A stretch of DNA of 41,998 bases, from NCBI RefSeq assembly GCF_036280135.1, contig NZ_DASURI010000399.1, forward strand, positions 1 to 41,998. Reading direction: 5' to 3'. This document shows positions 6,250-21,913 of the stretch, piece after piece (within the stretch, counting starts at the first letter, position 1; each line of letters starts with the position of its first letter). The stretch is from Longimicrobium sp. (GTDB lineage: Bacteria > Gemmatimonadota > Gemmatimonadetes > Longimicrobiales > Longimicrobiaceae). Below the pieces are notes generated by a model. It was not told where the DNA came from. It made no database searches and worked only from the letters and a program-made list of their open reading frames with translations. A program made the position numbers and the translations under genes.

Positions 6250-6278
6250 TTGACTGCGGGTCTAGTCGGGCCTATATT
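6250..6278 (+). promoter_or_regulatory. Early rightward sigma70 promoter
   Basis: TTGACT-N17-TATATT, with ATG 6 nt downstream. Confidence 0.8.
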
Positions 6279-6284
6279 GCTTGC

Positions 6285-6602
6285 ATGCGAAGCAAGTCGG
6301 CCCTCAACGGTTCCGCTCCCTCCCCCGTCGCGGTCCTGGACCGCGAGAACGGGGCGGCGGAAGATACCCGGAACGCAACGGGCGTTGTCCAGCCTCCGAA
6401 CACTTCCGCCGACTGTCACACGTACCTGACGACTGTCGAGGCCGCGTCGTACCTGCGGCTCCGGCCTCGGACTCTCCAGCTCTGGCGCATGCAGGGCAAG
6501 GGTCCGGACTACCGCAAGCACGGGAAGCTCCGGGTTTACACGGTCGCAGACCTCGACCGCTGGGCCGACGCTCAGCGGGTGGCCGTTCACGCCGAGAAGT
6601 AG
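6285..6602 (+). CDS. Excisionase/Cox-like HTH DNA-binding protein
   Basis: YLTTVEAASYLRLRPRTLQLWRMQGKGPDYRKHG..VY...DLDRW, an HTH_17-type pattern. Confidence 0.85.
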   Translation: MRSKSALNGSAPSPVAVLDRENGAAEDTRNATGVVQPPNTSADCHTYLTTVEAASYLRLRPRTLQLWRMQGKGPDYRKHGKLRVYTVADLDRWADAQRVAVHAEK

Positions 6603-6614
6603 GGGGGAAACGCA

Positions 6615-6902
6615 ATGACCAGCGTCGCCGTGACGAATCCGCTCCGTGGGATCTGCGCGCACTGCGGGTACACGTACCGCGGCGGCGCCGAGCCGGCCTC
6701 TCACGGGATCTGCAAGTTCTGCCTGCCGATCATCAAGGAGTTAGGCATGACCGGCGCGGCGATCGAGGCGTGCCGACGCCACGCCGAGACCCAGGTGGGC
6801 CGGCTGGAGCGCCAGATCATGGAGGGCCTGGCGCTGCGGCCGGCCCGGAAGGATCTGACCGAGGCCGAGGTGTTCGCGGGCCTGATGGAGCAGGGCCAGT
6901 GA
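6615..6902 (+). CDS. Hypothetical protein with Zn-ribbon
   Basis: CAHC...SHGICKFC motif. Confidence 0.7.
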   Translation: MTSVAVTNPLRGICAHCGYTYRGGAEPASHGICKFCLPIIKELGMTGAAIEACRRHAETQVGRLERQIMEGLALRPARKDLTEAEVFAGLMEQGQ

Positions 6903-7168
6903 GCGCCTCCCACGTCGGTTGGGAGCACGTGGCTCTGGAGCAGCGGCAGGCGCGCATCGTGCGCGTCATGGAGGTTGCCGCCTCGGGTCTGACGGAACGC
7001 GCGGCGGATCTGCGCGGCGCCGAGCCGGACGATCGCGAAGAGATCCGGATCAAGGTCGAGTCCGCGATCGAGGAGCTGCGGCTGGTGATCCAGGAGCTAC
7101 GCGACGCTGCCGATCTGCGCTCGGCCACGTCCGAGGTGCGCGCGTTCCTGCGCGGAGGTGTGCGGTGA
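6899..7168 (+). CDS. Hypothetical helical protein
   Basis: GTGA-coupled to the previous gene. Distal part of ORF 6281..7168. Confidence 0.6.
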   Translation: MSASHVGWEHVALEQRQARIVRVMEVAASGLTERAADLRGAEPDDREEIRIKVESAIEELRLVIQELRDAADLRSATSEVRAFLRGGVR

Positions 7169-7596
7169 GAAAGACCGACGCGGTGCTGCTGGCGTGCGTG
7201 CCGTGGACGGCCCTGGCGGCTCTCGGCTGGGCGGTGCTGACTCGTCCCGCCCCGGTGACCGCCAGGGCGCAGCAGGTCAAGGTGGTGACGCTCACGACGG
7301 CGCAGGCCGACGAGCTGGCGCAGCTCCAAAGCTACATCTCTGGCTTCGGGCACTACCTGGCCGCAAAGAACGGCGACCCGCAGAAAGGCATCAGGCCCAG
7401 CGTGTCCCGGGCGACGGCCATCGCCGGGATCATCGGCACCTCCTGCCGTTACCGCTCGCTCCTGACGGCCGCGACCCTGGAGACGGACGGCCTCCTCGCC
7501 ATCGAGCGGAACGACGTGACCACGGAGGACATGGAAGACACCGCGTTCGAGGCGGCCCGGTGCATCGAGCGCCGCCGGCTGCGGGCGGGCCTGTGA
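7165..7596 (+). CDS. Hypothetical membrane-anchored protein
   Basis: GGAGG RBS, GTGA coupling, N-terminal hydrophobic segment. Confidence 0.6.
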   Translation: MRKTDAVLLACVPWTALAALGWAVLTRPAPVTARAQQVKVVTLTTAQADELAQLQSYISGFGHYLAAKNGDPQKGIRPSVSRATAIAGIIGTSCRYRSLLTAATLETDGLLAIERNDVTTEDMEDTAFEAARCIERRRLRAGL

Positions 7597-7814
7597 GCGT
7601 GCTCGTCAAGCTCGCGATCGTGGCCGCCGCCGGGACCGCGGTGTACTGGCTCGCACGCCTGATGCACCGCGGCGAGGACCGTGTGTCGGCCTCGACCCTG
7701 CGCGGCCTGGACAGGACACACGAGGCCGAGGAGCCGCGGCGGTGGCTGCGCGGCAGGACGGTGTCGGAGCGCGGGCCGGTCCGGCGTGACCGGTACTCGC
7801 GGGCGATCCATTGA
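7593..7814 (+). CDS. Small membrane-anchored protein
   Basis: VSVLVKLAIVAAAGTAVYWL. GTGA coupling. Confidence 0.5.
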   Translation: MSVLVKLAIVAAAGTAVYWLARLMHRGEDRVSASTLRGLDRTHEAEEPRRWLRGRTVSERGPVRRDRYSRAIH

Positions 7815-7919
7815 GCGGGCGCTGGCAGTGCCCTTCATGTCGGCAGTGGCGGCGCGGTCCCGTGTGCGGGACGTGTCGCGTACCAAGGCCGCGGTAAGCG
7901 GCAGAAAGGCAGAGGCGTA

Positions 7920-8339
7920 ATGAAGATCGGAAGTGCGTTCCCGAGCAACTACCTGAAGCACGAGGACCTGGGCGGCCGCAACGTGCTCGTGACGATCGAG
8001 AGCGTGCGCGTCGAGGAGATCCGCGGCGAGGGCGGGAAGGAAAACAAGCCCGTCCTGTACTTCGTCGGCAAGGAAAAGGGTCTGGTCCTGAACAAGACCA
8101 ACGCGGAGACCCTCACGGAGATCCTCGGCACGGACGAAACCGACGACTGGCACGGCTGTCAGGTGGTGCTGTACCACGACCGCAACGTGAGCTTCGGCGG
8201 GAAGCGCGTGGGCGGCATCCGGATCGCGCCGGCACCGAAGCCGGCCAACGGCAAGCGGCCGCAGGCTCCGCCGCCGCCCGTGACGGAGGACGTCCCCCCG
8301 GCCGAGTTCCAGGCCACCGACGACGACATCCTTTTCTAG
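7920..8339 (+). CDS. Putative single-stranded DNA-binding protein
   Basis: Beta-rich core, Pro-rich linker and acidic C-terminal tip DDDILF. Confidence 0.6.
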   Translation: MKIGSAFPSNYLKHEDLGGRNVLVTIESVRVEEIRGEGGKENKPVLYFVGKEKGLVLNKTNAETLTEILGTDETDDWHGCQVVLYHDRNVSFGGKRVGGIRIAPAPKPANGKRPQAPPPPVTEDVPPAEFQATDDDILF

Positions 8340-8349
8340 GCGCCCGGCC

Positions 8350-9165
8350 ATGAAGATCGGGCGTTACTTCGACGCAGCGCCGGGGCCCAGGCCGGCCCCG
8401 GCCGTTCCCCGCACCCGTCCGCAGTCACCCGAGACCCTGCGCGAGTTCGGGCCTCGGTCGGAGACGGCGGTGGACCTGCTGGACCCGACGACGTACCGCA
8501 TGGTCGAGGCCCTCGCGGCAGACGTGCGGGAGATCGCGCGGCGCGCTACGGGCCAGCCCCTCAAGTCTGCCGAGGAGGCGCACCAGCTCACGGAGCTGCT
8601 GGCCCGCGCGGCCTCGGCCGGCAAAGACCTGGACCGCTACCGGCGCCAGGCAGTGGACCCGCTCAACGCGCAGGTGAAGACGATCAACGCCACGTTCAAG
8701 CCCCTGACGACGGCGATCGAGAACATCCAGGAGCGGGGCAAGCGCTCGCTCGAAGCCTGGTTGCAGCAGGAGCGGGCCCGGGTCGAGCGGGAGCGGCGCG
8801 AGGCGGAGCGGCTGGCCGAGGAGGCCGCCGCGCGCGAGGGCCAGGCCCTGCTCGAGGCCGACGCCGCGCAGACGCCGGAGCAGCGCCAGGACGCACTGGC
8901 CCGGGCCGAGGCCGCGAGCGCGGACCAAGCGGCCGCCGTCGTGGCGGCTCCGCTCCCGGCCCCGCGCGTGCTCAAGGGCGAGTACGGCACCGCGGGCCTG
9001 CGGAAGCGCTGGACCTTCGAAGTCGTGAAGCCGGAGGACGTGCCGCGGCAGTACCTGACGGTGGACGAGAAGGCGATCCGTGCGGCTGTCGCGGGCGGTG
9101 TGCGGCAGATCCCGGGCGTGTCCATCACCGAAACCGAAGAGATCGCCGTCCGGGCGGGAGGGTAA
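8350..9165 (+). CDS. Coiled-coil phage protein (Gp157/Gam-like C-terminus)
   Basis: Long helix ending in WTFEV..VPRQYL.VDEKAIR..V..GVRQIPGV. Confidence 0.55.
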   Translation: MKIGRYFDAAPGPRPAPAVPRTRPQSPETLREFGPRSETAVDLLDPTTYRMVEALAADVREIARRATGQPLKSAEEAHQLTELLARAASAGKDLDRYRRQAVDPLNAQVKTINATFKPLTTAIENIQERGKRSLEAWLQQERARVERERREAERLAEEAAAREGQALLEADAAQTPEQRQDALARAEAASADQAAAVVAAPLPAPRVLKGEYGTAGLRKRWTFEVVKPEDVPRQYLTVDEKAIRAAVAGGVRQIPGVSITETEEIAVRAGG

Positions 9166-9170
9166 CGGAC

Positions 9171-9362
9171 ATGGCCTTGCGGTTCCGTCGGTCCAATCTC
9201 AAGTACGGCGAGGACGCGCCGTCGAGCTACCAGTGCATGCGTATCCGGATGCGCGCGGAGCGGCTGGTGCTGGCGGCTCGCAAGCTCCAGACGGAGGCTC
9301 AGCGGCAGCGCAGCGAGCGCGACTCGCTCACCTGGGAAGAGCACCTGTCGAGGGCGTTATGA
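9171..9362 (+). CDS. Hypothetical protein
   Basis: GGAGG RBS. Coupled to the next gene. Confidence 0.5.
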   Translation: MALRFRRSNLKYGEDAPSSYQCMRIRMRAERLVLAARKLQTEAQRQRSERDSLTWEEHLSRAL

Positions 9363-9709
9363 AGACTGCCAAGACGTATCGCCATCAGATGCTCAGTGAG
9401 CTGCCGAAGCCGGCAAAGCTGGATCCGGTGCTGGCCGAGCCGTTGCCGGAGCCGGCCGCCGTGGTGTGGGAAGACCCGCCGCCGGCAAAGGGGCTGGGCC
9501 GCGGGAGGTCGAAGTATCCGGCGTTGTTTGCGTTGCTGCGGCAGCATCAGGGGCGCTGGGCGCTGCTCTACACCATCGGCGGCAAGACCAACAACGGCAG
9601 CATGGGCACCTACCTCCGGAAGATTGCTCTCGCGGCCGGCGGCGGCTTCGAGATCGTCCAGCGCGGGCTCAAGGTCTACGGCCGCTACGTCGGCACCAAG
9701 GCGGAGTAG
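9359..9709 (+). CDS. Hypothetical protein, possibly nucleic-acid binding
   Basis: ATGA-coupled start. Basic compact domain GRGRSKY...VYGRYVG. Confidence 0.65.
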   Translation: MKTAKTYRHQMLSELPKPAKLDPVLAEPLPEPAAVVWEDPPPAKGLGRGRSKYPALFALLRQHQGRWALLYTIGGKTNNGSMGTYLRKIALAAGGGFEIVQRGLKVYGRYVGTKAE

Positions 9710-9729
9710 GGGCCTGTGATCGTGATGAT

Positions 9730-10114
9730 GCGAGGGGGCGCGGTGTCTGGCGTACCCCTCGCCGTGACCGGCAGTCAGCAGAAGCCCGCGGAGCGGTTCC
9801 CCTCGCGTGAGCGGCCCCGCCCCGCTCGCGTCACCGTTCCGCGGGCTTTTCCTGGCGGCCGTTCAGATCACCCGCGCGTGCAGGAGGGTACGTCCGGGTG
9901 CAGCCGCTACCACGAGCGCCGGTACGCCCAAGGGCCGGCGAGACACCGCGCAGGACGGCCGCCAGGAACCTCTAGAGAGCCGGCGTCGGATCCACGCTGG
10001 AAGGCGATGGGGTGGGGCTCATTCCCCCTACATGACGCGCACGCCAGGGGCGTAGGAGCAGGAGAGCGCCCCTATCCCGGTGGCCGCGTTGCCTGACGCC
10101 GGCTCTCTAGAGGT
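9730..10114 (+). ncRNA. Multi-domain structured RNA locus (candidate antisense/regulatory RNAs)
   Basis: Stems 9730-37/9755-62, 9782-97/9833-48, 9849-64/9953-68 and 9968-89/10093-114. Stem mismatches are G.U on the + strand. Confidence 0.75.
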
Positions 10115-10121
10115 GCGGTGA

Positions 10122-10871
10122 ATGGCTGAGACATCGATTGCGTGGACGCACTACACGTTCAATCCCTGGTGGGGCTGCACGCGCGTTTCGCCGGGCTGCG
10201 AGCACTGCTACGCGGAGGCTTTCTCCCACCGCATGGGGCACGAGATATGGGGGCCGACTGCCGACCGCCGCTTCTTCGGTGACACCCACTGGAACGAGCC
10301 GCTGAAGTGGCACCGCAAGCGCCAGCAGGGCGGACCCAAGCATCTCGTCTTCTGCGCGTCAATGGCCGACGTGTTCGAGGATCGGCGCGACCTCGACGCA
10401 CCACGCGAGCGGCTCTGGTCCCTGATCGAGTCCACTCCGCTGTTGACCTGGCAGCTCCTCACCAAGCGGCCGGAGAACGCGCTCCGGCTCAGTCCGTGGG
10501 GCCAGGACAGGGGGCGCCAGTGGCCCGTCAACGTGTGGCTGGGATTCACGGCAGAGAGCCAGGAGTGGCTTGACAGGCGTTGGCCGGCCGCGCGCGCCGC
10601 GGCGTCCTGGGTGTCGCAGTTCTTCATCTCTGCCGAGCCGCTGGTCGGACCCATAACGCTCGGCCGTCGCGCCGCCTCCGTGAATTGGGTAATCACTGGC
10701 GCCGAGAGCGGGCACGGTGCCCGTCCTATGTCGCTCGATTGGGTCCGCTCGCTGCGCGACGAGTGCCAAGCCAACGGCATCGCCTTCTTCCACAAGCAGG
10801 AGATACGCGCCGGACGGAAGGTCGAGACTCCAGAGCTGGATGGCCGGCGATGGACGGAATTTCCGGAGTGA
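10122..10871 (+). CDS. Phage Gp37/Gp68 family (DUF5131) protein
   Basis: TSIAWTHYTFNPWWGCTRVSPGCEHCYA, VFCASMADVF, LLTKRPEN, WVITGAESG motifs. Confidence 0.9.
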   Translation: MAETSIAWTHYTFNPWWGCTRVSPGCEHCYAEAFSHRMGHEIWGPTADRRFFGDTHWNEPLKWHRKRQQGGPKHLVFCASMADVFEDRRDLDAPRERLWSLIESTPLLTWQLLTKRPENALRLSPWGQDRGRQWPVNVWLGFTAESQEWLDRRWPAARAAASWVSQFFISAEPLVGPITLGRRAASVNWVITGAESGHGARPMSLDWVRSLRDECQANGIAFFHKQEIRAGRKVETPELDGRRWTEFPE

Positions 10872-10878
10872 GGTGAGC

Positions 10879-11067
10879 ATGAAAGACCTGGACATCCGTT
10901 TGCTGGACCGCCAGGCCGCGCGTGAGTCCGTGATCAGGACGATCGAGGGCCTTGCGCGGGAGGCCCGCCGGGTAGTGAAGATTCATCCGTGTGGCACCGG
11001 ATCGGCCTACCGCCGCGAGCGTGCGCGATTGTTCCGGGCGGCCCTGCGCGCCGTCATGGGCGCGTAG
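10879..11067 (+). CDS. Hypothetical protein
   Basis: GAGGTG RBS then ATG. Confidence 0.55.
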   Translation: MKDLDIRLLDRQAARESVIRTIEGLAREARRVVKIHPCGTGSAYRRERARLFRAALRAVMGA

Positions 11068-11508
11068 ATGGCCTCGCCCGGCCCCTACCCCGACCGTGCC
11101 GACGATCGCGCCCCGGCGACGCGTTCCCACGCGTGCACGGGCCAATCCTGCGAAGCCCCCGGCTGCCGGAATCCGCTCCGGCCCGCCCAGGTCGCGAAGG
11201 GCGGCCGGTACTGTTCCCCGAAGTGCCGCCGCGCCGGCTGGGAAGCGCAGCACCCGCGGGCTAACCGGCCTCGGCCCGGCGTGGGCGAGGGCCGGGCGGT
11301 CGATCGCGTGCTCGGGATCATGGCCGACGGCAAGTGGCGCACCGTGCCAGAGCTGGCGGTCCTGGCCGGCTGCACCGAGGCCGGCGCCTCGGCCCGCCTG
11401 CGTGACCTGCGCAAGCCCAAGTTCGGCCGGTTCACCGTGGAGCGGCGCCCGATCGCTCCCGTGTGGACGCCGAGGCTGTACGAGTACCGCGTGATTCTCA
11501 GGGGGTGA
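11068..11508 (+). CDS. Zn-finger plus winged-HTH DNA-binding protein
   Basis: CEAPGC..YCSPKC, then MADGKWRTVPELA...ASARLRDLRK...YEYR. Confidence 0.7.
   Translation: MASPGPYPDRADDRAPATRSHACTGQSCEAPGCRNPLRPAQVAKGGRYCSPKCRRAGWEAQHPRANRPRPGVGEGRAVDRVLGIMADGKWRTVPELAVLAGCTEAGASARLRDLRKPKFGRFTVERRPIAPVWTPRLYEYRVILRG
11103..11150 (+). repeat. Dispersed ~45-bp element, copy 1
   Basis: Core ACGCGTTCCCACGCGT at 11119-11134. Confidence 0.85.
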
Positions 11509-11511
11509 TGG

Positions 11512-12348
11512 GTGGCCGGGCACTTCGTCAAGCTCTACGGTTCGATCCTGAATAGCAGCGTCTGGTGTTCCACGCCGGAGGTCAAGCTGGTGTGGATCAC
11601 CATGTTGCTACTCGGGGACGGCGACGGAAACGTCTACGGTGCTGTCCCGGGCATCGCTCGTCAGGCCGGCGTGCCAGTCGAGGCGTGTCGGGAAGCGATC
11701 AAGTACCTGAGCGGCCCCGACCCGGACTCGCGCACGCCCGACCACGAGGGCCGCCGGATCCTGCCGATAGACGGCGGCTGGAAGATCGTCAACTCCAGGA
11801 AATACCGCGAGATGCGAACTGAAAGGCAGCGGCAGTCGGCCGACCGTGCGCAGCGATACCGGGAGAGAAAGGCGGCCGGCCAGACTCGGCGTCCGCGTGA
11901 CGCGTCACGCAAATCACGCGCAGAGGTAGAGGTAGAGACAGACACTACGGATATTCCTCCGGAAGGGGCGGCTACCGCCGCACCCGCCGCGAAGAAACCG
12001 AGAGCGCCGTCAGTCCAGGCGGAAGCCGTGCAGGACTACGAGCAGCGTTTCGGCGCCGGCTCTGCCCCGGGCGGGCGGATCGCGGGCGTCATGACCCGGC
12101 TGGTGGAGCACCAGGCCGCGGCGCGTTCCGAGGAGCCGTACCCCTGCTGGTCGGGCTGGGTGCGGCCGGCGTGGCGGCGCTACCTCGCGGAGACCACGCA
12201 TCCGGCGCCGAACGTGAACGACTTCGCGCAGCATTTCGCGGACTGGGCGGGCGTGACGGCCTTGGCGCGAGCGCCGGCGCGCGGCGGCGGTGGGGCCGAG
12301 GCGCGATCCGATGCGGCCGTGGCGCGGTTCATTCAGCGCGGGAGGTGA
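11512..12348 (+). CDS. Putative replication initiator (replisome organizer)
   Basis: FVKLYGSILNSSVW wHTH-type N-terminus, R-rich helix, EVEVETDT linker, internal palindrome. Confidence 0.7.
   Translation: MAGHFVKLYGSILNSSVWCSTPEVKLVWITMLLLGDGDGNVYGAVPGIARQAGVPVEACREAIKYLSGPDPDSRTPDHEGRRILPIDGGWKIVNSRKYREMRTERQRQSADRAQRYRERKAAGQTRRPRDASRKSRAEVEVETDTTDIPPEGAATAAPAAKKPRAPSVQAEAVQDYEQRFGAGSAPGGRIAGVMTRLVEHQAAARSEEPYPCWSGWVRPAWRRYLAETTHPAPNVNDFAQHFADWAGVTALARAPARGGGGAEARSDAAVARFIQRGR
11895..11946. other. Candidate replication origin inside the initiator gene
   Basis: Perfect 16-bp palindrome GCGTGACGCGTCACGC, an extra TCACGC, then AGAGGT/AGAGAC hexamer repeats. Confidence 0.45.
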
Positions 12349-12352
12349 GAGG

Positions 12353-12700
12353 GTGACATGTCACTTTGTCGAAGGCGCAGTGCTGTGCACTGGCACTGGC
12401 GGATGGCGCGTGAGCCCCGCTTTGGAGTGCGGGTGGTGCCTGGAAAAGCGTCGCTGCATCGAGACGCCCATCTTCAGCGGCTACTGCGGATACGACGTGA
12501 TCTGCGGCACCTGCGGCTCGGAGTGGAACACCGACGATGGACGGTTCCGCAAGATCGACAACGACGAGCGCGACGCCAACATTGCGCGCGTAGCCGCGAT
12601 GCCGGATCCGAAGTGCTGGGAATGCCACGATACCGGCGACACCGGCGAGCCGATGGACGAACCAGGTACTCACCCGTGCAAGTGCGGAGCGGGCCGGTGA
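12353..12700 (+). CDS. Cys-rich hypothetical protein
   Basis: Several CxxC motifs. GGAGGTG RBS. Confidence 0.6.
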   Translation: MTCHFVEGAVLCTGTGGWRVSPALECGWCLEKRRCIETPIFSGYCGYDVICGTCGSEWNTDDGRFRKIDNDERDANIARVAAMPDPKCWECHDTGDTGEPMDEPGTHPCKCGAGR

Positions 12701-13035
12701 TCGTCCAGCTCTCGACGGGCCGCGAGCGTGTCGGCCGCGAGGTGTTCGGGGTGGGCCTCCGGGCCATCGCGGCGGCGTACTGGCGCGAGCTGTCTGACGC
12801 GACGCTGGAGACGTTCTACGCCGTGCTGGGCGGGGCCATGACCGACCTGGAGTGGCACCGGTTGGTCGAGGAGGCGATCGGGCCCGGCTCGAGGGATCGG
12901 ACGTTCCCGCCGACGCCGGGCGAGCTGCTGGCGATTCTGGACGCGCAGCGGCAGGCCGAGCGGCCGGGCGTGGATCTGCTGGAAGAGGCCGAGGCCGACG
13001 AGCTGGCGCTGCGGGTGGCCCGGGAGCGTGCGTGA
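12697..13035 (+). CDS. Possible helicase loader/inhibitor (G39P-like)
   Basis: FPPTPGELL motif, helical, downstream of the initiator. Confidence 0.5.
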   Translation: MIVQLSTGRERVGREVFGVGLRAIAAAYWRELSDATLETFYAVLGGAMTDLEWHRLVEEAIGPGSRDRTFPPTPGELLAILDAQRQAERPGVDLLEEAEADELALRVARERA

Positions 13036-13211
13036 CCGGCTGGTACTACATGCGAGGGCTGTTCTGGTTCCGGCTGTTCGGATGGGGCCTCCGAGTGGCC
13101 GATCGCAGGATTCATCCGGCGCTGTTCTCGGAGCGGACTGGCCGGATATGGGTCCTGAGGGTTGGTCCGTGGAGCATCGCCGGCCTGAGGCCCTGGTCGT
13201 CGCGTGACTGA
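13032..13211 (+). CDS. Small Trp/Arg-rich hypothetical protein
   Basis: Overlaps both neighbours (GTGA start). Confidence 0.45.
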   Translation: MTGWYYMRGLFWFRLFGWGLRVADRRIHPALFSERTGRIWVLRVGPWSIAGLRPWSSRD

Positions 13212-13617
13212 CCACGGCGCAACGTTCACGGCCGACGTGACAGCGGACGGCAAGCTGCGGCCGCTGAACCGAGCCGGCTGGGACGTGGTGTTGAACGGCT
13301 GGGCGGGCAAGCGCGTAACGGTCCAGATTGAGCCGGAGCGCAGGACCCGGACGAATCCCCAGCTCCGCCGGTATTTCGGCTGCATCGTGCCGGTGGTGCG
13401 CGAGCTGCTGAGCCAGGGCCGGGTGGTACCGCTGAGCAAGCTCCAGGTGCACCGGTTGCTGTGCGGCGCCTTCCTCGGGCACGAGTCCACGCCGATCGGT
13501 GACGTGCCGATCGAGAGCAAGACGCTAGACCCGGGCCAGTTCGCCGCGTTCTGCGACCAGGTCGAGGCGCACTTTCGGGTGGAGTTCGGGGCCGAGTTCC
13601 CGTTGGAGGCCGAGTGA
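13204..13617 (+). CDS. NinB-like protein
   Basis: RTNPQLRRYFGCIV...SKTLDPGQFAAFCDQVE. Confidence 0.6.
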   Translation: MTDHGATFTADVTADGKLRPLNRAGWDVVLNGWAGKRVTVQIEPERRTRTNPQLRRYFGCIVPVVRELLSQGRVVPLSKLQVHRLLCGAFLGHESTPIGDVPIESKTLDPGQFAAFCDQVEAHFRVEFGAEFPLEAE

Positions 13618-14093
13618 CCTGGATCTCTCGGCGAGTCCCGCTGAAGCGCAGCTCGAAGCCGATCGCGCGGCGCGCGCGGCCCCGAAGCCGGATTCCGAAG
13701 GCGCTGGGCACTCACCGCGAGCGGGTGAAGTACGCGAACGACCTGTGGCGGCGGCTGATCTACGCGAAGGAGCCGAGCGGGATCTGCCCGCGGTGCCGCG
13801 CGCGGAAGTGGCACGACGCCGCGCACTGCTTCGCGAAAGGCCCGTATCCGGCGCTGCGCTTCGAGCTGGAGAACGGCGCGCCGCTTTGCCGCCCGTGCCA
13901 TACGCGCGTGGACTCGGACCACCACGCCAAGGTCGAGTTCTTTACGCGCTACATCGGGGCCGTCGAGTACGAGCGGCTGCGGCTGCGGGCGCTGTCTCGG
14001 GCCAAGTCCGACCTGGCGTTGACGATCCTGTACCTGGAGCGTGCGTCACGTTCGGGGGCGGCGGTAGTATCTCGCCCGGTGGGGCCGACCTGA
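13614..14093 (+). CDS. NinG/Rap-like HNH-type endonuclease
   Basis: CPRC..DAAH...LRFELENG..LCRPCH. Confidence 0.75.
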   Translation: MTWISRRVPLKRSSKPIARRARPRSRIPKALGTHRERVKYANDLWRRLIYAKEPSGICPRCRARKWHDAAHCFAKGPYPALRFELENGAPLCRPCHTRVDSDHHAKVEFFTRYIGAVEYERLRLRALSRAKSDLALTILYLERASRSGAAVVSRPVGPT

Positions 14094-14103
14094 AGCGTGA
14101 CGC

Positions 14104-14132
14104 TTGACAAACGATAGGCACTCTGCTATATT
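14104..14132 (+). promoter_or_regulatory. Strong sigma70 promoter
   Basis: TTGACA-N17-TATATT with TGn extension. ATG 6 nt downstream. Confidence 0.85.
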
Positions 14133-14138
14133 GGTCGC

Positions 14139-14363
14139 ATGACACCAAAGACCAAGCGGGGAACGTGCCGGTGCTGCGGCGGGGTCGTGGTGCTGGTGGA
14201 TGGCGCGTGGGTGCGCGACGCGAGAATGGCGCGCGGGATCAAGCTGGCGCACGTGGCTAGCCGCCTGGGCGTTTCGAGCTCTTACGTGTCGCAACTCGAG
14301 GCCGGGCTGCGGCCGTTCTCGCTCAAGCTGTGGACCCGTTACCGCAAGGCGCTGGAGGGGTGA
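14139..14363 (+). CDS. Small XRE-type HTH protein
   Basis: RMARGIKLAHVASRLGVSSSYVSQLEAG. Confidence 0.8.
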   Translation: MTPKTKRGTCRCCGGVVVLVDGAWVRDARMARGIKLAHVASRLGVSSSYVSQLEAGLRPFSLKLWTRYRKALEG

Positions 14364-14677: not shown

Positions 14678-14910
14678 TGTCGAATCAGGGGCGGATGGAC
14701 GCGGAGGCAGACGCGGCGCAGCTCAGAATCGCGTGGCGTGACACCTGGGGCACCGAAGGGCGCATCTTCGATGCCACTTACGCGATGGATTGGCCGCAGG
14801 GGCCGGACTGCCGAGCCGCAAAGCACCACGCAACCATCAGCGCGCGGGCCGTGTTCATCGCCGTCCCCGGCCTGCGAGACGACGAGCCGGGGGAGCGCGA
14901 GGGGGAGTGA
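14677..14910 (+). CDS. Accessory hypothetical protein
   Basis: TGATG coupling. Confidence 0.55.
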   Translation: MSNQGRMDAEADAAQLRIAWRDTWGTEGRIFDATYAMDWPQGPDCRAAKHHATISARAVFIAVPGLRDDEPGEREGE

Positions 14911-14912
14911 GC

Positions 14913-15089
14913 ATGCCTGAAACAGAACTGCGGTGCGTTGACTGCGGGGCCGAGAAAGACTCCGAGGGGTGGTGCCCGAATTATTGCATGACCGGCGAGT
15001 GCGGCTGCTGGTATCACGCCGAGGAAGGCATACCGTGTCCGCACGATCTCGCCAAGGCGAAGCCGGAGCGCGAGGGCAGGGAGGGGTGA
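14913..15089 (+). CDS. Small Cys-rich accessory protein
   Basis: GGAG RBS, CxxC motif. Confidence 0.55.
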   Translation: MPETELRCVDCGAEKDSEGWCPNYCMTGECGCWYHAEEGIPCPHDLAKAKPEREGREG

Positions 15090-15498: not shown

Positions 15499-15860
15499 TG
15501 TCCGATCTGCGGGAGAGGGCGGAGAGATGGTATCGGCAGCGTTACGGTTACGCGCCCGAAGTGGACCTGTCTGGCAGCCAGGACGTAGACGAATTCGTCA
15601 CCTTCGCCTCCGAGCTGCTGCGCGAGCGCGACGCGGAGATCGCCCGGCTCAAGGGGGAGGTGGAGAAGCGCGACGCCGAGATCGAGCAGTCGGACGTGCG
15701 CTACCTCCATCTCCGTCGCCAGGTGGAGGCGGGGCGGGCCTATCGTGATGACCACACGCGCCACTGCCTGGTCGGGACTGGCCCGGGCGGTGAGGTGATC
15801 GATGAGCGCTGCGCCGATTGTCGCGCCTGGGACGCGGCCGAGAAGGGGGAGGGACGCTGA
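15498..15860 (+). CDS. Accessory protein, coiled coil plus Cys motif
   Basis: TGATG coupling. RDAEIARLK coiled coil. Confidence 0.6.
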   Translation: MSDLRERAERWYRQRYGYAPEVDLSGSQDVDEFVTFASELLRERDAEIARLKGEVEKRDAEIEQSDVRYLHLRRQVEAGRAYRDDHTRHCLVGTGPGGEVIDERCADCRAWDAAEKGEGR

Positions 15861-16129
15861 TGCTGCCGAAGGGACCGTGGGGATACGAGAGATCGATCAG
15901 CGGCGACTACTGCGTCGGCTGTCTGACTGGATACCACGGAGGACCCAAGCACAGCCGGGGCTGCCTCACGGCCGTGGTCGAATCCGTCTTCACGGAGGTG
16001 GTGGGGGCGCTGCAAGGCGAGCTATCGCCGGGGCGGTCAGACTGCAACGACCGCAAGTGCGGAGCATGCTCGCGGTGTCGGTCCTTGGCCGCCCTCGCCT
16101 CGGTCGAGAAGCTGAAGGAGGGGCGGTGA
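15860..16129 (+). CDS. Cys-rich accessory protein
   Basis: TGATG coupling. Confidence 0.55.
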   Translation: MLPKGPWGYERSISGDYCVGCLTGYHGGPKHSRGCLTAVVESVFTEVVGALQGELSPGRSDCNDRKCGACSRCRSLAALASVEKLKEGR

Positions 16130-16320
16130 GACGCCTGTTCCGTGAGACCTGTCCGAATTGCGTGAGTGCGTGTCATCTTGGACGCTACCTGGAAACTTGC
16201 ATCGTTTGTTCGCCCGGACTCAATGCGCCGGCTCGGGGCTGGGTGTGGCGGCCCGTGTGGTTGCATCGGCTACTGGTGTCGCGCTGGAACTTCGCGGCCC
16301 TGGAGAAGGGCTCCCGATGA
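16126..16320 (+). CDS. Cys-rich accessory protein
   Basis: GTGA coupling. Confidence 0.5.
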   Translation: MRRLFRETCPNCVSACHLGRYLETCIVCSPGLNAPARGWVWRPVWLHRLLVSRWNFAALEKGSR

Positions 16321-16978: not shown

Positions 16979-17211
16979 TGCCGACTAACCCCCGGCGCCG
17001 GATCGAGGAGGCGGCGAGGGAGATCGAGCAGCCGTTCGGCTACACGATCGTCTACGGGCATCATCTCAAGATCGTGGCTGTCCTGGAGCGCCTGATCCGG
17101 GAGGCCGCGGAGGTGGTAACGCGCCCGTGCTACGACGACACTGACCCCGACTTGGCGATCCTCTCCCACTTCGGCCTGGGCGAGGAGGAGGGGAGGGAGC
17201 GGAATGGCTGA
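16978..17211 (+). CDS. Accessory hypothetical protein
   Basis: TGATG coupling. Confidence 0.55.
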   Translation: MPTNPRRRIEEAAREIEQPFGYTIVYGHHLKIVAVLERLIREAAEVVTRPCYDDTDPDLAILSHFGLGEEEGRERNG

Positions 17212-17410
17212 GAAGACTAAGCCGGAGCCGTGCCCGTTCTGTGCCGACGATCGCGTATCGGTCGAAGGTGCTGCTGGCCTGTGGTGGGTGTTCTGTGGGA
17301 ACCCGTTCTGCGGCGCTAGCGGGCCTGATCGCCGGACTCGACGGGACGCCATCGAGCGGTGGAATGACGCGCCGAGAGATCGGTCTCTGGTGTCCTCCGA
17401 TGCCCGCTGA
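17204..17410 (+). CDS. Lar-family (restriction alleviation-like) protein
   Basis: PCPFC...VFC...CGASGP...AIERWN. Confidence 0.75.
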   Translation: MAEKTKPEPCPFCADDRVSVEGAAGLWWVFCGNPFCGASGPDRRTRRDAIERWNDAPRDRSLVSSDAR

Positions 17411-17594: not shown

Positions 17595-17782
17595 AGGACC
17601 GCCGCGTGCCGAAGAAGGGCGAGCCACTGAGACGTTGGGTTGACTGCGAGGAGTGCGGGAACCCGTGTACGGCTTGGGCGAAGCAGTGCGGGTCGTGCGG
17701 TATTCTCGGGCCGATCTGCTTTTCCTGTCTCAGCCGCAAACACACGTTCTGCGACCCGGAGGCCGCCGATGTCCGACGCTGA
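17591..17782 (+). CDS. Small Cys-rich accessory protein
   Basis: GTGA coupling, three CxxC motifs. Confidence 0.5.
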   Translation: MKDRRVPKKGEPLRRWVDCEECGNPCTAWAKQCGSCGILGPICFSCLSRKHTFCDPEAADVRR

Positions 17783-19328
17783 GTTTTTGGCCTGGAAGAT
17801 CGAGTCTCTGCTGACCGACCGCTGGGAGATCGGGACGTCTGAAGACGGCAGCGACAGCTCGTGGAGTCCGGTCGGGCCAGGAGAGATCACCGCGGCTGTG
17901 CTTCCGCTGCTCGCCCCCCTCCTGGAGGAGCAGGGGCGGCTGCGGAGGGTGCTCGACAACGTTCAGTTCCAGGTCACCTACATGTGCGAAGAGATCGGCG
18001 TCGTGCTCGGACTCGGTACTCAGAGTCCTGCCGATACGGTGTCGTCGGTCAGGGATCTGATGCAGGGGGCTGAGTCCTCGAAGGAGCGCGCCGAAGCGGC
18101 CGAGGCCGAGGCCGCCAAGTTTCGGAGCCCCCATCGCCGCGTCCGCTGTGACCACGATGACTATATGTGTGATGTCTGTAAGGTGCAGTGGCCGTGCGAC
18201 GTGGCCCGAGGCGCTACGTTCGGCGGCCTTGGCGGGTCCACCACTGGGAGCCTGTGTCCAAAGCATGGCGTTCCAATGGTGCAAACGATCACCGAGCATG
18301 TGCTGTGCGCGGTGTGTGAGCAAGCCGAGGCCGCCAAGCTGCGGGAGGAGCGAGACGAGTTGCTGGTCCGTGATCACGCTTACGCCGAGCGTGAGAATGC
18401 CCTGAACGACGGCTGCCTGAAGCTGGAGGCCAAGGTCGCCGACCTGGAGGCGCGCAAGCTTGGCTACCGCAACGCGGCCGTCATCCTGAAGAACCACGTC
18501 GCTAGTAGGGCTCGTCTTCTCCGCAAGGTCTTCGACCGACTGAAGGACGCCCGCAACGCGCTCGCCTCCGCCCAGCAGAGGGCGGGGAGGATGGAGGGGG
18601 CGCTGCGGGAGATGCTGGATTTGGCAGAGCGTCGGTTGGACGGTATCTGGCGGGGACACTTGGAGCCCGGCGTCAGAGCAGCCCGCGCAGCCCTGTCCCC
18701 CGCCCCGGAGCCGGCGCCGTGGAAGTGCGCGGCGCGAAACAGCGCGTGCGACCCACCGCAAGACTGCGACTGGCCCAACTGCGGATGCGACCCGAAGGCG
18801 AGCGAGGTCATGTCGGCGCTGGTCGAGCAGGGATGGAGGCCGCCCGCCCCGGCGCAGGAGGGGGCGCCGAAGCCGGCCCACCTGTTCTGTCCGAAGTGCA
18901 ACGAGCGCCACGTAGACCGCGGCGAGTGGGAGACGCGCCCTCACCACAAGCACCTGTGCGAATTCTGCGGACACGTCTGGAGAGTGGAACCGTACACCTA
19001 CGGGATTGCGGCCCCGGAGCCTGCCCCGGTGAGCCGAGAGGGGGAGCCGCTTGCCAAGGCACTAGAGATCATCGAAGCCGCTGCGGAGAACGAGTGCGGG
19101 GCCTGCGCCGACGGGGAGTCTCTCTGGCGCGGCGAGGACCAGCCGGAGCTGTATCTGCACGGCTTCGATGACGAGATGGGCGAGTGCGAGAGTCAGACGA
19201 TGCAGGCCGCGGTGGACGCAGGATTGCTGCCGATCACGATCCTGCCGAAGTGCAAGGCCGGCCATGCGTGGTACGGCGGCGGCTGCCCGAATTGCGCCCG
19301 GCGCGCCGCGGGGGAGGGGGAGCCCTAA
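17769..19328 (+). CDS. Mosaic multi-module protein (coiled coils plus several Cys/His clusters)
   Basis: ~519 aa. Modules are separated by repeated AEAAK and APEPAP linkers. Confidence 0.65.
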   Translation: MSDAEFLAWKIESLLTDRWEIGTSEDGSDSSWSPVGPGEITAAVLPLLAPLLEEQGRLRRVLDNVQFQVTYMCEEIGVVLGLGTQSPADTVSSVRDLMQGAESSKERAEAAEAEAAKFRSPHRRVRCDHDDYMCDVCKVQWPCDVARGATFGGLGGSTTGSLCPKHGVPMVQTITEHVLCAVCEQAEAAKLREERDELLVRDHAYAERENALNDGCLKLEAKVADLEARKLGYRNAAVILKNHVASRARLLRKVFDRLKDARNALASAQQRAGRMEGALREMLDLAERRLDGIWRGHLEPGVRAARAALSPAPEPAPWKCAARNSACDPPQDCDWPNCGCDPKASEVMSALVEQGWRPPAPAQEGAPKPAHLFCPKCNERHVDRGEWETRPHHKHLCEFCGHVWRVEPYTYGIAAPEPAPVSREGEPLAKALEIIEAAAENECGACADGESLWRGEDQPELYLHGFDDEMGECESQTMQAAVDAGLLPITILPKCKAGHAWYGGGCPNCARRAAGEGEP

Positions 19329-19337
19329 AGATTCCTC

Positions 19338-19366
19338 TTGACATCCGCTCGTCCGCGAGCTATATT
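19338..19366 (+). promoter_or_regulatory. Strong sigma70 promoter of a moron-like module
   Basis: TTGACA-N17-TATATT followed by an AGGAGG RBS. Confidence 0.85.
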
Positions 19367-19381
19367 TGGTGTCAGGAGGGG

Positions 19382-19603
19382 ATGATGAAGAGCAAGTGGC
19401 AGTACAAGGTGGTGAAGACGCAGCGTGGACAGCAGGGCCAGTGGTTCCGCCACCGGGCGGCCTACACCAGCGTGGACGAGGCGTCGGCGGTCCAGTACGC
19501 CGAGGGGTTCGCTGCCGAGCAGCAGGCTGCTGGCGTGACGGGTACGCGGGTCCTGGTGCTGGCGCGCAAGGGCGACCGCGTGGTCCGCGAGTTCGGCTGG
19601 TAG
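19382..19603 (+). CDS. Moron-like hypothetical protein
   Basis: Has its own promoter and an AGGAGG RBS. Confidence 0.7.
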   Translation: MMKSKWQYKVVKTQRGQQGQWFRHRAAYTSVDEASAVQYAEGFAAEQQAAGVTGTRVLVLARKGDRVVREFGW

Positions 19604-20265: not shown

Positions 20266-20282
20266 CCGATGGAGCCGAGGGG

Positions 20283-20552
20283 ATGAGCGACTGGAAGCCG
20301 ATCGAGAGCGCGCCGAGGGATGGGACGCATCTGCTGCTGTACTCGGCGGAGTGGACAAGGCATGCCGTTAACACTGACGCGAGGTCGTTCGCTGGCGGTC
20401 GCGAGCCGGCGCCAGCGTTTGCCAGGATCAGGGGAGTCTACGAAGGGCGCTGGTCGGACGTTGGGGCCTGCTGGTATTCGGTCACTCGCCACAAGTTCCT
20501 TTCGCCGCCGACCCACTGGATGCCGCTGCCAGATCCGCCGGAGGGGGAATGA
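20283..20552 (+). CDS. DUF551-like phage protein
   Basis: WKPIESAPRDGT...PTHWMPLPDPP. Confidence 0.8.
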   Translation: MSDWKPIESAPRDGTHLLLYSAEWTRHAVNTDARSFAGGREPAPAFARIRGVYEGRWSDVGACWYSVTRHKFLSPPTHWMPLPDPPEGE

Positions 20553-21913
20553 GCGACACCCCGCAGGTGCCGGCCAACCTCGAGGCCGAGCGCTGGGTGC
20601 TGGGCGGGATCATGACGGCCGGGCTGCGCGAGAAGGGGCTCGACCGCGTCGCGCCGATCCTGTCCGCGGGAGACTTCTACCCGTTCAAGCACCAGACGAT
20701 CTACGCGGCCATGCTCGAGCTGGCGCGGCAGGGGGAGGACCCGGACCTGATCACGCTGGTGAACCAGCTACGCCGGGGCCAGCAGATCGAGGGTGTCGGG
20801 GGCGAGAAGTACGTGGCGGGCCTGGTGGACGGCGTGCCGCGCGTGACGGGCATCGAGGGCTGGGCGCGGATCGTGCGGCGGCACAGCCTGCGTCGGCAGG
20901 TGGCAGCGGCCGCAGAGGGGATCGCGCTGGCGGCGATGATGGACGATCGCGACCCCGAGGAGGTGATCGAGGCCGGCCTGGGCGAGCTGGTACGGCTGTC
21001 GAAGGCGGCTACGGACCGGGCCTTCCCGGACAACGCCGACCTGGTCAAGCGAGTGATCGCGGACGCCGAGGCGCGGGAGCTGGAGCCCGACGGCATCCTC
21101 GGATGGCGTAGCGGCATTGTCGGCCTCGACCGTGCGTTGCAGGGTATCCAGGGCGGGGAGCTGGGCCTGGTGTGCGGCGGGCGTGGCGAGGGCAAAAGCG
21201 CGATGGTGTTGCAGATCGCGCAGAACGTGGTCGCTACCGCGCCGGGCCGGGTCGTGTACTTCACGCTGGAGATGAAACCGGAGATCCTGACCGAGCGCCG
21301 CCTGTCGGGCGAGGCCGGGGTGTCGGTGCGTTCGCTGTGGAAGTACCGCTACTCACCTGACGAGCGCGCGCAGCGTTGGGCCCGGATCGCCAAGGCCGAG
21401 CCGGTGATCGCGCGGCCCGAGCTGGTGACGTGCTCCAGCGCGCGCACGGTCGGCCACATGCGGGCCCGGGCGCGGCAGATCCAGGCCGAGCACGGCCTGT
21501 CCCTCGTGGTGGTGGACTACCTCCAGCTCGTGCGTCCGGCGCAGGCCAAGCAGCGGCGTAACGAGGAGGTCGCGGAGGTGGCGCGCGACCTGAAAGACCT
21601 GGCGATGGACCTGAACGTGCCCGTTGTGGCGGCGTGCCAGCTCAACCGCGGCCCGGCTTCGCGCAAGGATGGCAGGCCGGCCATGACCGACATCGCGGAC
21701 AGCGACGAGCCGGGCAAGGCATGCGATTGGGCGGTGCTGATTCACCGGCTGGACCTGACGCAGCCGACGCCGGAGCGGCGCGAGGAGATGAAGGGGCAGG
21801 TGGACTTGATCATCGGGAAGCACAGGAACGGCTGGGCCTCGGACGTGCGCGTGCGGTTCCTGGGCGCGGTGACGCAGTACATCGATGCGCCGGAGGTTGA
21901 GATCACGACTTGA
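20549..21913 (+). CDS. dnaB: Replicative DNA helicase
   Basis: NLEAERWVLG N-domain, Walker A GGRGEGKS, FTLEM, VVVDYLQL, QLNR, IIGKHRNG. Confidence 0.92.
   Translation: MSDTPQVPANLEAERWVLGGIMTAGLREKGLDRVAPILSAGDFYPFKHQTIYAAMLELARQGEDPDLITLVNQLRRGQQIEGVGGEKYVAGLVDGVPRVTGIEGWARIVRRHSLRRQVAAAAEGIALAAMMDDRDPEEVIEAGLGELVRLSKAATDRAFPDNADLVKRVIADAEARELEPDGILGWRSGIVGLDRALQGIQGGELGLVCGGRGEGKSAMVLQIAQNVVATAPGRVVYFTLEMKPEILTERRLSGEAGVSVRSLWKYRYSPDERAQRWARIAKAEPVIARPELVTCSSARTVGHMRARARQIQAEHGLSLVVVDYLQLVRPAQAKQRRNEEVAEVARDLKDLAMDLNVPVVAACQLNRGPASRKDGRPAMTDIADSDEPGKACDWAVLIHRLDLTQPTPERREEMKGQVDLIIGKHRNGWASDVRVRFLGAVTQYIDAPEVEITT

Follow-up and report, generated by a model that had tools for sequence, protein, structure and literature searches.

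An uncatalogued structured element with a C4-like core in the early operon of a Longimicrobium phage, and its possible pairing with phage gene starts

The locus and its fold

The window analysed here is the whole stretch of 41,998 nt of a contig assigned to Longimicrobium sp. This 42-kb contig represents a temperate, uncultured phage with genes for a P22-like portal and coat and for an integrase, together with a divergent HTH repressor-like gene and NinG-, DnaB- and DUF5131-like genes, and its link to the host assembly rests on binning. Within the early operon, on the + strand as are all features below, the element occupies a structured gene-free interval (9710..10121) flanked upstream by a gene of 116 aa and downstream by the DUF5131 gene (10122..10871; Pfam PF07505, E 8e-64). 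Gene starts were those of our own simple caller, and the 16S tail was not found in the host assembly.

The nearest promoter found upstream of the element is a sigma-70-type promoter-like site (6250..6278), detected by scanning beside the divergent repressor-like gene and 3.4 kb ahead of the element. A consensus scan, of a kind that would miss weak signals, revealed none between 6278 and 14104. Two further promoter-like sites, each matching at 11/12 positions, head a block of small genes (14104..14132) and a block ending in dnaB (19338..19366). The three sites have TTGAC-N18-TATATT in common (window positions 6250-6285, 14104-14139 and 19338-19385) and, for those at 6250 and 14104, the ATG of an HTH gene lies 6-7 nt downstream, such that the messages would be leaderless. 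No terminator was detected within the element by a scan that would miss Rho-dependent signals, and the phage genes scanned gave no match to an antirepressor, Ash or Bro family.

An open frame of 126 codons (9716..10096) crosses the element and ends in the 3' arm of a long stem described below, stem C. It lacks a Pfam match and a coding signature, and a homolog was obtained neither from 1.84 billion protein representatives and other protein collections nor from viral, metagenome or genome contigs. The crossing ORFs have a flat GC content over the codon positions (0.67-0.76), whereas GC3 amounts to 0.82-0.97 in the 11 real genes tested. The interval is predicted to fold into long-stemmed hairpin domains A, B and C that abut one another, with fold z values of -6.9 on the + strand and -4.9 on the - strand. 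Its 412 nt hold four perfect Watson-Crick stems of at least 11 bp, as many as are present in 26 of 5000 host windows, and the share of G.U pairs (17/141 on the + strand against 11/135 on the - strand) barely favours the + strand.

The good folding of the - strand would suit a locus without any RNA function, at which inverted repeats act as DNA, constitute a relic of an inversion or small mobile element, or belong to a mini-gene on the - strand with a ribosome site that looks like an antisense loop. Consistent with this, an 8-bp palindrome occurs in both arms of stem C, and the - strand of hairpin C2 (see below) reads as a ribosome site and ATG, opening a frame of 16 codons. Nevertheless, we consider such an origin very unlikely, given that the element is single copy in its own 7.3-Mb assembly, that target-site duplications are absent by eye, that the ribosome site of DUF5131 belongs to the stem, and that several G.U-containing helices favour the + strand and the open loops have partners.

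Relatives were sought widely. DNA searches of 60 relatives, 70 genomes of the family and 400 of the order gave matches of 29-45 nt only and no homolog, and a one-sequence covariance model of domain B found nothing in the 70 family genomes; such a model lacks a positive control, so that its blanks carry little weight. No homolog of the element was present in phage and plasmid records or, by model or DNA, in whole virus records (36 + 3). DNA patterns gave 6, 39 and 71 loci in viral contigs, with the structure in none, and no loci in genome contigs. The upstream gene has an 87% identical relative, P0002, encoded on a 36-kb contig. A set of contigs (X1) matches the element exactly but with an overlap of only 19 nt (9961-79), and therefore the junction of domains B and C is bridged by no listed contig. 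A sequencing run (X2) contains pieces of the flanks at 88-100% and does not cover 9710-10134, which makes it uninformative either way. Isolated matches to parts of domain C, of 28/29 and 28/30 nt, occur in two genomes of the order (L194:1501-1529 and L070:1501-1530), where the surroundings fold differently and, in L194, precede a tRNA-like gene.

The element has no match in Rfam. A tRNA or tmRNA was considered and dropped. HDV, hammerhead and T-box RNAs, which were checked by motif, were set aside for want of an Rfam match. A retron-like or group II intron RNA, likewise checked by motif, was dropped, there being no reverse transcriptase among the scanned proteins of the contig and one on another contig. 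In our judgement, this is a real structured element, uncatalogued and with a C4-like core.

Domain B, its upstream target and the DUF5131 start

Domain B (9849..9968) is predicted to form a three-way junction with a closing stem and two hairpins, and the likeness to C4 RNA that had originally been proposed for it holds in this fold. An a'-type antisense block lies in the loop of the second hairpin (9921-36) and a b'-type block lies beside it in the 3' junction (9941-51), both single-stranded. A tRNA-like cut would be expected to yield an RNA of 108 nt, from GG at 9857 to GCCA at 9964, a frame which was spotted by eye only. The loop of the first hairpin is a perfect AGGAGG, 10 nt before a GTG (window positions 9882-9975), and that GTG opens a frame of 25 codons (9898-9975) ending in the anti-SD arm of stem C.

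All strings and coordinates quoted in the original prediction were recovered in the sequence, including its upstream target for domain B. Positions 9738-48 pair with 9941-51 by 11 Watson-Crick pairs, and 9749-56 with 9921-28 by eight, giving 19 bp in two blocks. An asymmetric, long-range pairing of this size was produced by none of 2000 dinucleotide shuffles (maximum 18), by 21 of 3000 random genome windows and by two of 194 contig windows, both within the element. With accessibility taken into account, the upstream site scores -15.2 kcal/mol and no site this strong occurs in 137,998 nt of control sequence, drawn as 14 segments of which two host draws look overlapping. An accessibility-weighted scan covering 6.2-17.2 kb yielded 898 helices, among which the 11-bp block comes first. 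The upstream match to domain B is beyond chance. Domain B also has a perfect 14-bp complement, to its positions 9925-38, inside the integrase gene (4521-34), about 0.5 being expected on a rough estimate.

The segment 9730-37 is, as claimed, complementary to 9799-9806 at the bulge of domain A. Its usual partner is the first CCCCTCGC (9755-62), and thus the upstream target is held in a hairpin of its own, H0 (9730..9762), of which only the loop 9742-49 is free. H0 contains the target (9738-56), an SD-like GAGGGG (9732-37) and a GTG at 9743 that lies in the long open frame. Seven bases of its loop can kiss the open junction 9941-47 (-9.7 kcal/mol, opening cost only 0.2-0.3 or about 0.5 kcal/mol), and this contact is predicted to be compatible with every stem. 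The full 19 bp lie 5-10 kcal/mol above the minimum-energy fold over ten transcript lengths and require melting of H0 and of part of domain B. The mutually exclusive folds that had been postulated are therefore exclusive only in part: the full pairing competes with the stems, whereas strict exclusivity fails because the 7-bp kiss coexists with all of them. Two-strand cofolding gave no binding at any site, which is attributable to the inability of nested folding to form loop-junction kisses, and was not used as evidence.

Domain C (9968..10114) comprises a 20-bp perfect stem (9968-87 with 10095-114) around three hairpins. The ribosome site of DUF5131 (GAGGT, 10110-14), reported earlier to be buried, is indeed so: it closes the stem as its last 5 bp, with a probability of 0-0.05 of being unpaired. 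Opening the DUF5131 start would cost 19.8 kcal/mol, the second highest value among 29 starts, with three others within 1.3 kcal/mol. A frame of 13 codons (window positions 10080-10124) has its TGA directly against the DUF5131 ATG, which may allow translational coupling.

The second site claimed for domain B, over this start (10113..10128), is weak. Its two blocks (10113-20 with 9944-51, and 10123-28 with 9901-06) are present with one G.U each, although the pairing is at chance level: 54 control sites are as good as its -8.4 kcal/mol, corresponding to 0.16 per 400 nt, and the blocks rank 55 and 151 among the 898 helices. The 8-mer GTGCGGTG of this site recurs at the start of gene 7165, so that the match is in part a Shine-Dalgarno/start word. 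The site is identical to the upstream site at 12/15 positions in register, for which 0.045 would be expected per 400 nt.

In the original prediction, domain B alone would be a C4/CI-type immunity RNA that toggles between the upstream and downstream sites and gates DUF5131. The C4-like topology, the significant upstream target and the in-register identity over the ATG all accord with this, as does the pairing of P4 CI with seqA upstream and seqC downstream that is described in passages of PMC4825925. We regard it, however, as quite unlikely, since the downstream pairing is no better than chance and shares its word with start 7165, the ribosome site to be gated is already buried, and neither a promoter (6278-14104), nor a terminator in the element, nor an antirepressor family among the scanned genes was found. 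The extension whereby replication genes would be gated by polarity in lysogens is improbable to a similar degree. In the absence of an internal promoter, a terminator and an antirepressor, the accompanying suggestion of a second immunity layer is unsupported.

The element does not appear to be a general DUF5131 leader: upstream folds were computed for at least 113 DUF5131 loci (eight shuffles each) and, among the 12 of lowest z, which were read by eye, none is alike. At one locus (L141) two near-identical 30-nt palindromes lie 200-300 nt upstream of the DUF5131 gene and are unrelated to the element. A literature search, with subscription journals mostly outside its reach, yielded no paper linking DUF5131 with phages.

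Complementarity to distant gene starts

A stronger signal lies in a further set of complementarities that the original prediction had missed, those of hairpin C2 and domain A to distant gene starts, including that of dnaB; these, and the match at 16071 considered below, were found after looking and not predicted beforehand. Hairpin C2 (10010..10031) carries at 10017-29 the complement of an SD sequence and start codon, and its 8-nt loop (10018-25) is open. Its strongest predicted target is the ribosome site and ATG (20542..20554) of the DnaB-like helicase gene (20549-21913), with 13 Watson-Crick pairs and a net energy of -11.2 kcal/mol. A second predicted target, the ribosome site and GTG (14900..14912) of ORF 14907-15089, offers 13 pairs with one G.U (net -7.8) and overlaps a 12-bp match of domain A (14895-906). 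A weaker match of 10 bp (20279..20288; net -6.0) falls on start 20283 of the gene before dnaB, a start that was chosen by eye, and shorter matches are also found at starts 322 and 6615.

Within the contig, five of ten long C2 matches fall on gene starts against 10/262 for other segments, the helix set being 278 in all with 6 outside the named segments. A search of 14,451,952 nt of host sequence gave no copy of the C2-matching 13-mer, and matches of 13 pairs occur at 2/68 phage starts and at none of 2750 predicted host starts, 22 of which show at least 10 pairs. Whichever of the two lists of starts is used, C2 outranks every other window of the RNA. With 68 hand-corrected starts the score gives a probability of 0.001-0.002 and the count one of 0.007-0.05; eight starts were added to this list and four dropped from it after the GAGGGG pattern (see below) had been seen. 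The 64 automatic starts do not include 14907 or 20283, and with them the signal is marginal (0.03-0.08 by score and 0.24-0.38 by count); start 14907 was picked by a second automatic caller. When no gene-start condition was imposed, 52 of 400 shuffled RNAs held some doubly matched 13-mer, and single matches of 13-14 bp also occur within genes, as at 4521-34 in the integrase gene.

The marginal C2 signal with automatic starts leaves room for another reading, that of a structured leader acting solely in cis, for which the stems are processing or attenuation signals, the H0-B contact is an intramolecular tertiary kiss and the distant matches are due to chance. An RNase III-type cut, or a ribosome on the 126- or 25-codon frame, would then open the DUF5131 site. 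In accordance with such a leader, hardly any linker separates one stem from the next and the group is closed over the DUF5131 start by a weak helix, the kiss fits alongside all stems, and the two frames stop in the 3' arm (9716-10096) and the 5' arm (9898-9975) of stem C. There is also a precedent in P4, for which PMC10111431 includes an account of eta translation across the immunity RNA preventing termination. On the other hand, neither frame bears a coding signature, the 126-codon frame lacks homologs, and two 13-pair matches to gene starts from one open loop are left unexplained. We judge a leader confined to cis to be unlikely, while giving it appreciable weight.

Domain A (9780..9850) consists of an 18-bp plus 10-bp hairpin with an open bulge (9798-9804; opening cost 0.02 kcal/mol) that complements GAGGGG. 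This ribosome-site word precedes 7 of the 15 predicted starts in 14.1-21 kb, a block that was delimited after the data had been seen, and none of 50 other phage starts; compared with its occurrence at 50/2750 host starts, the Fisher probability for the block is 6e-9. Further GAGGGG starts in the block are visible by eye. The complement CCCCTC occurs five times on the + strand of the contig, with two of the copies in the RNA, and the bulge can also pair with the GAGGGG of H0. Among nine other phage records, three of them near-identical, GAGGGG is present at 16/504 starts, including 6/71 in G435, and none has a comparable cluster of stems; the word can thus be common in the absence of such an RNA. 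The GAGGGG block further includes, in a small gene (window positions 17204-17410), a match to a Lar-like restriction-alleviation protein (PHROG 599). An ORF of 519 aa (window positions 17769-19328) contains numerous Cys/His clusters and matched no family.

A second two-block match to domain B (16071..16088; 9 + 9 bp with one G.U) lies in coding sequence, inside ORF 15860-16129 and about 40 nt before a GTG at 16126. Its 18 bp equal the upstream site in strength in the accessibility-weighted scan. For the 9-mer of its first block, 0.43 copies are expected in the contig, and 2 of 147 host copies have a second block as long. The site is also predicted to form the 5' arm of a hairpin (window positions 16074-16135) in which the GTG and the ribosome site of ORF 16126 are buried. 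Behind it comes the same 8-mer as for the upstream site, an arrangement seen in none of the 147 host cases.

Open loops could alternatively serve a protein, such that GGA loops sequester a host CsrA/RsmA regulator. With the CsrB repeat consensus taken as the reference, CAGGA occurs four times (0.63 expected), GGA is present in three of seven hairpin loops and CsrA is encoded in the assembly. Nonetheless, GGA is not enriched in total (8 against 10 expected), two of the four CAGGA copies lie mostly in stem, no Rfam match was obtained and the complementarities would remain unexplained, all of which renders this reading highly improbable.

Comparison with phage RNAs and a possible mode of action

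In C4 RNA, three stems are accompanied by loops a' and b', through which ribosome sites are bound (PMC5320573), and RNase P cuts the precursor (PMC5320573; PMC12197685). Domain B agrees with C4 of P1 and P7 (RF01695; PMC2864571) in its closing stem and two hairpins, with one antisense block in a loop and another in the junction next to it. A bipartite target likewise lies upstream, the loops are directed at ribosome sites and a processed form starting with GG is possible, as in PMC5320573 and PMC12197685. Unlike C4, which measures about 77 nt, domain B extends over 108-120 nt; the downstream target is poor, icd and ant are lacking and there is no promoter of its own. The next gene is that for DUF5131 in place of an antirepressor (icd-ant) operon, and two further antisense-bearing domains aim at operons 4-11 kb away. 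The C4 model (RF01695) gave no match at the gathering score in the window, and none with E up to 10 in the region. It gave none either in the host assembly, where the search alone says little since 14 control genomes were equally blank.

With P4 seqA-CI-seqC (eta/kil) and Gifsy-1 IsrK-orf45-anrP, as outlined in passages of PMC4825925 and PMC10111431, the element shares the position of a structured cassette in an early operon before replication genes, an antisense domain preceded by a hairpin domain, and a frame that crosses the cassette. It differs from both in that its crossing frame shows neither a coding signature nor any homolog or Ash/Bro match, and in that scans gave neither a terminator nor an internal promoter; Rfam searches with the isrK model gave no match in the window or region. 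Lacking a model match, an antirepressor and an internal promoter, the element is not a member of the C4, P4 CI or IsrK families. The RNA of the N15 secondary-immunity locus immA is CA RNA. What the present proposal has in common with immA (PMC4488713) is the notion of a second control locus beside a CI-type switch, but no gene here matches icd, antA or antB. It resembles PreS of lambda and VpdS of VP882 in being an early-region phage RNA that may tune replication by base pairing; according to passages of PMC12197685, those RNAs are short and depend on Hfq, with host dnaN as the target of PreS, whereas the element, a heavily structured stretch of about 400 nt, has the phage's own helicase as predicted target.

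The stems, the predicted open loops and their complementarities are established from the sequence and by computation, and the correspondence of these loops with start signals of the phage's own genes, including that of its DNA helicase, makes the element a likely many-armed antisense regulator. The reading that we prefer, though evenly divided over it, is that 9710-10121 acts as an antisense RNA of C4/CI-like kind with several arms, its open loops pairing with gene starts of the phage itself. Its + strand would be transcribed within an early transcript from the promoter at 6250, and host nucleases could release the domains, the stems of 16-22 bp being of a size suited to RNase III and domain B possibly being freed through its tRNA-like GG...GCCA frame by an RNase P-type cut. 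The C2 loop might seed on the start codon of dnaB or ORF 14907, after which the weak C2 stem would unzip onto the ribosome site and initiation would be blocked. The domain A bulge may compete for GAGGGG ribosome sites in the 14-21 kb block. Domain B would form its kiss with the H0 loop, whether in cis or in trans, and might also bind at 16071; translation of DUF5131 would be prevented by stem C for as long as that stem is neither cut nor melted.

The block with the predicted targets of C2 and domains A and B carries near-consensus promoters of its own (14104 and 19338). A stronger version of the proposal, which we hold only tentatively and are inclined to doubt, is that a 400-nt precursor bears three independent antisense arms on separate long stems, and that its cleavage gives three RNAs which jointly silence the helicase gene and a block of a dozen accessory genes. 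It is similarly doubtful, if conceivable, that the arms reach targets 4-11 kb away under strong host-type promoters, with the regulon replacing a protein repressor in a manner matching no catalogued family. The antisense regulator would likely serve to time or dampen the operons for replication and accessory functions, immunity being unproven.

C4, CI and IsrK act, according to the passages describing them, on targets beside the RNA, and aiming several arms at a distance would extend this logic. If the regulator operates as proposed, a single cassette with several arms on distant operons, including that of the replicative helicase, could set the timing of phage replication genome-wide, and the unusual ribosome-site word common to one gene block would be explained. 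With support from a single sequence, it is at present a good lead as distinct from a described system. No paper on a multi-armed phage antisense RNA directed against the phage's own helicase was found in a literature search for which subscription journals mostly lay outside. Directly 3' of the 13 nt of the dnaB target, the sequence 20555-20564 is identical to the domain B junction at 9/10 positions and consequently complementary to the H0 loop; this may be chance arising from a common N-terminus, or H0 and C2 could bind dnaB in tandem.
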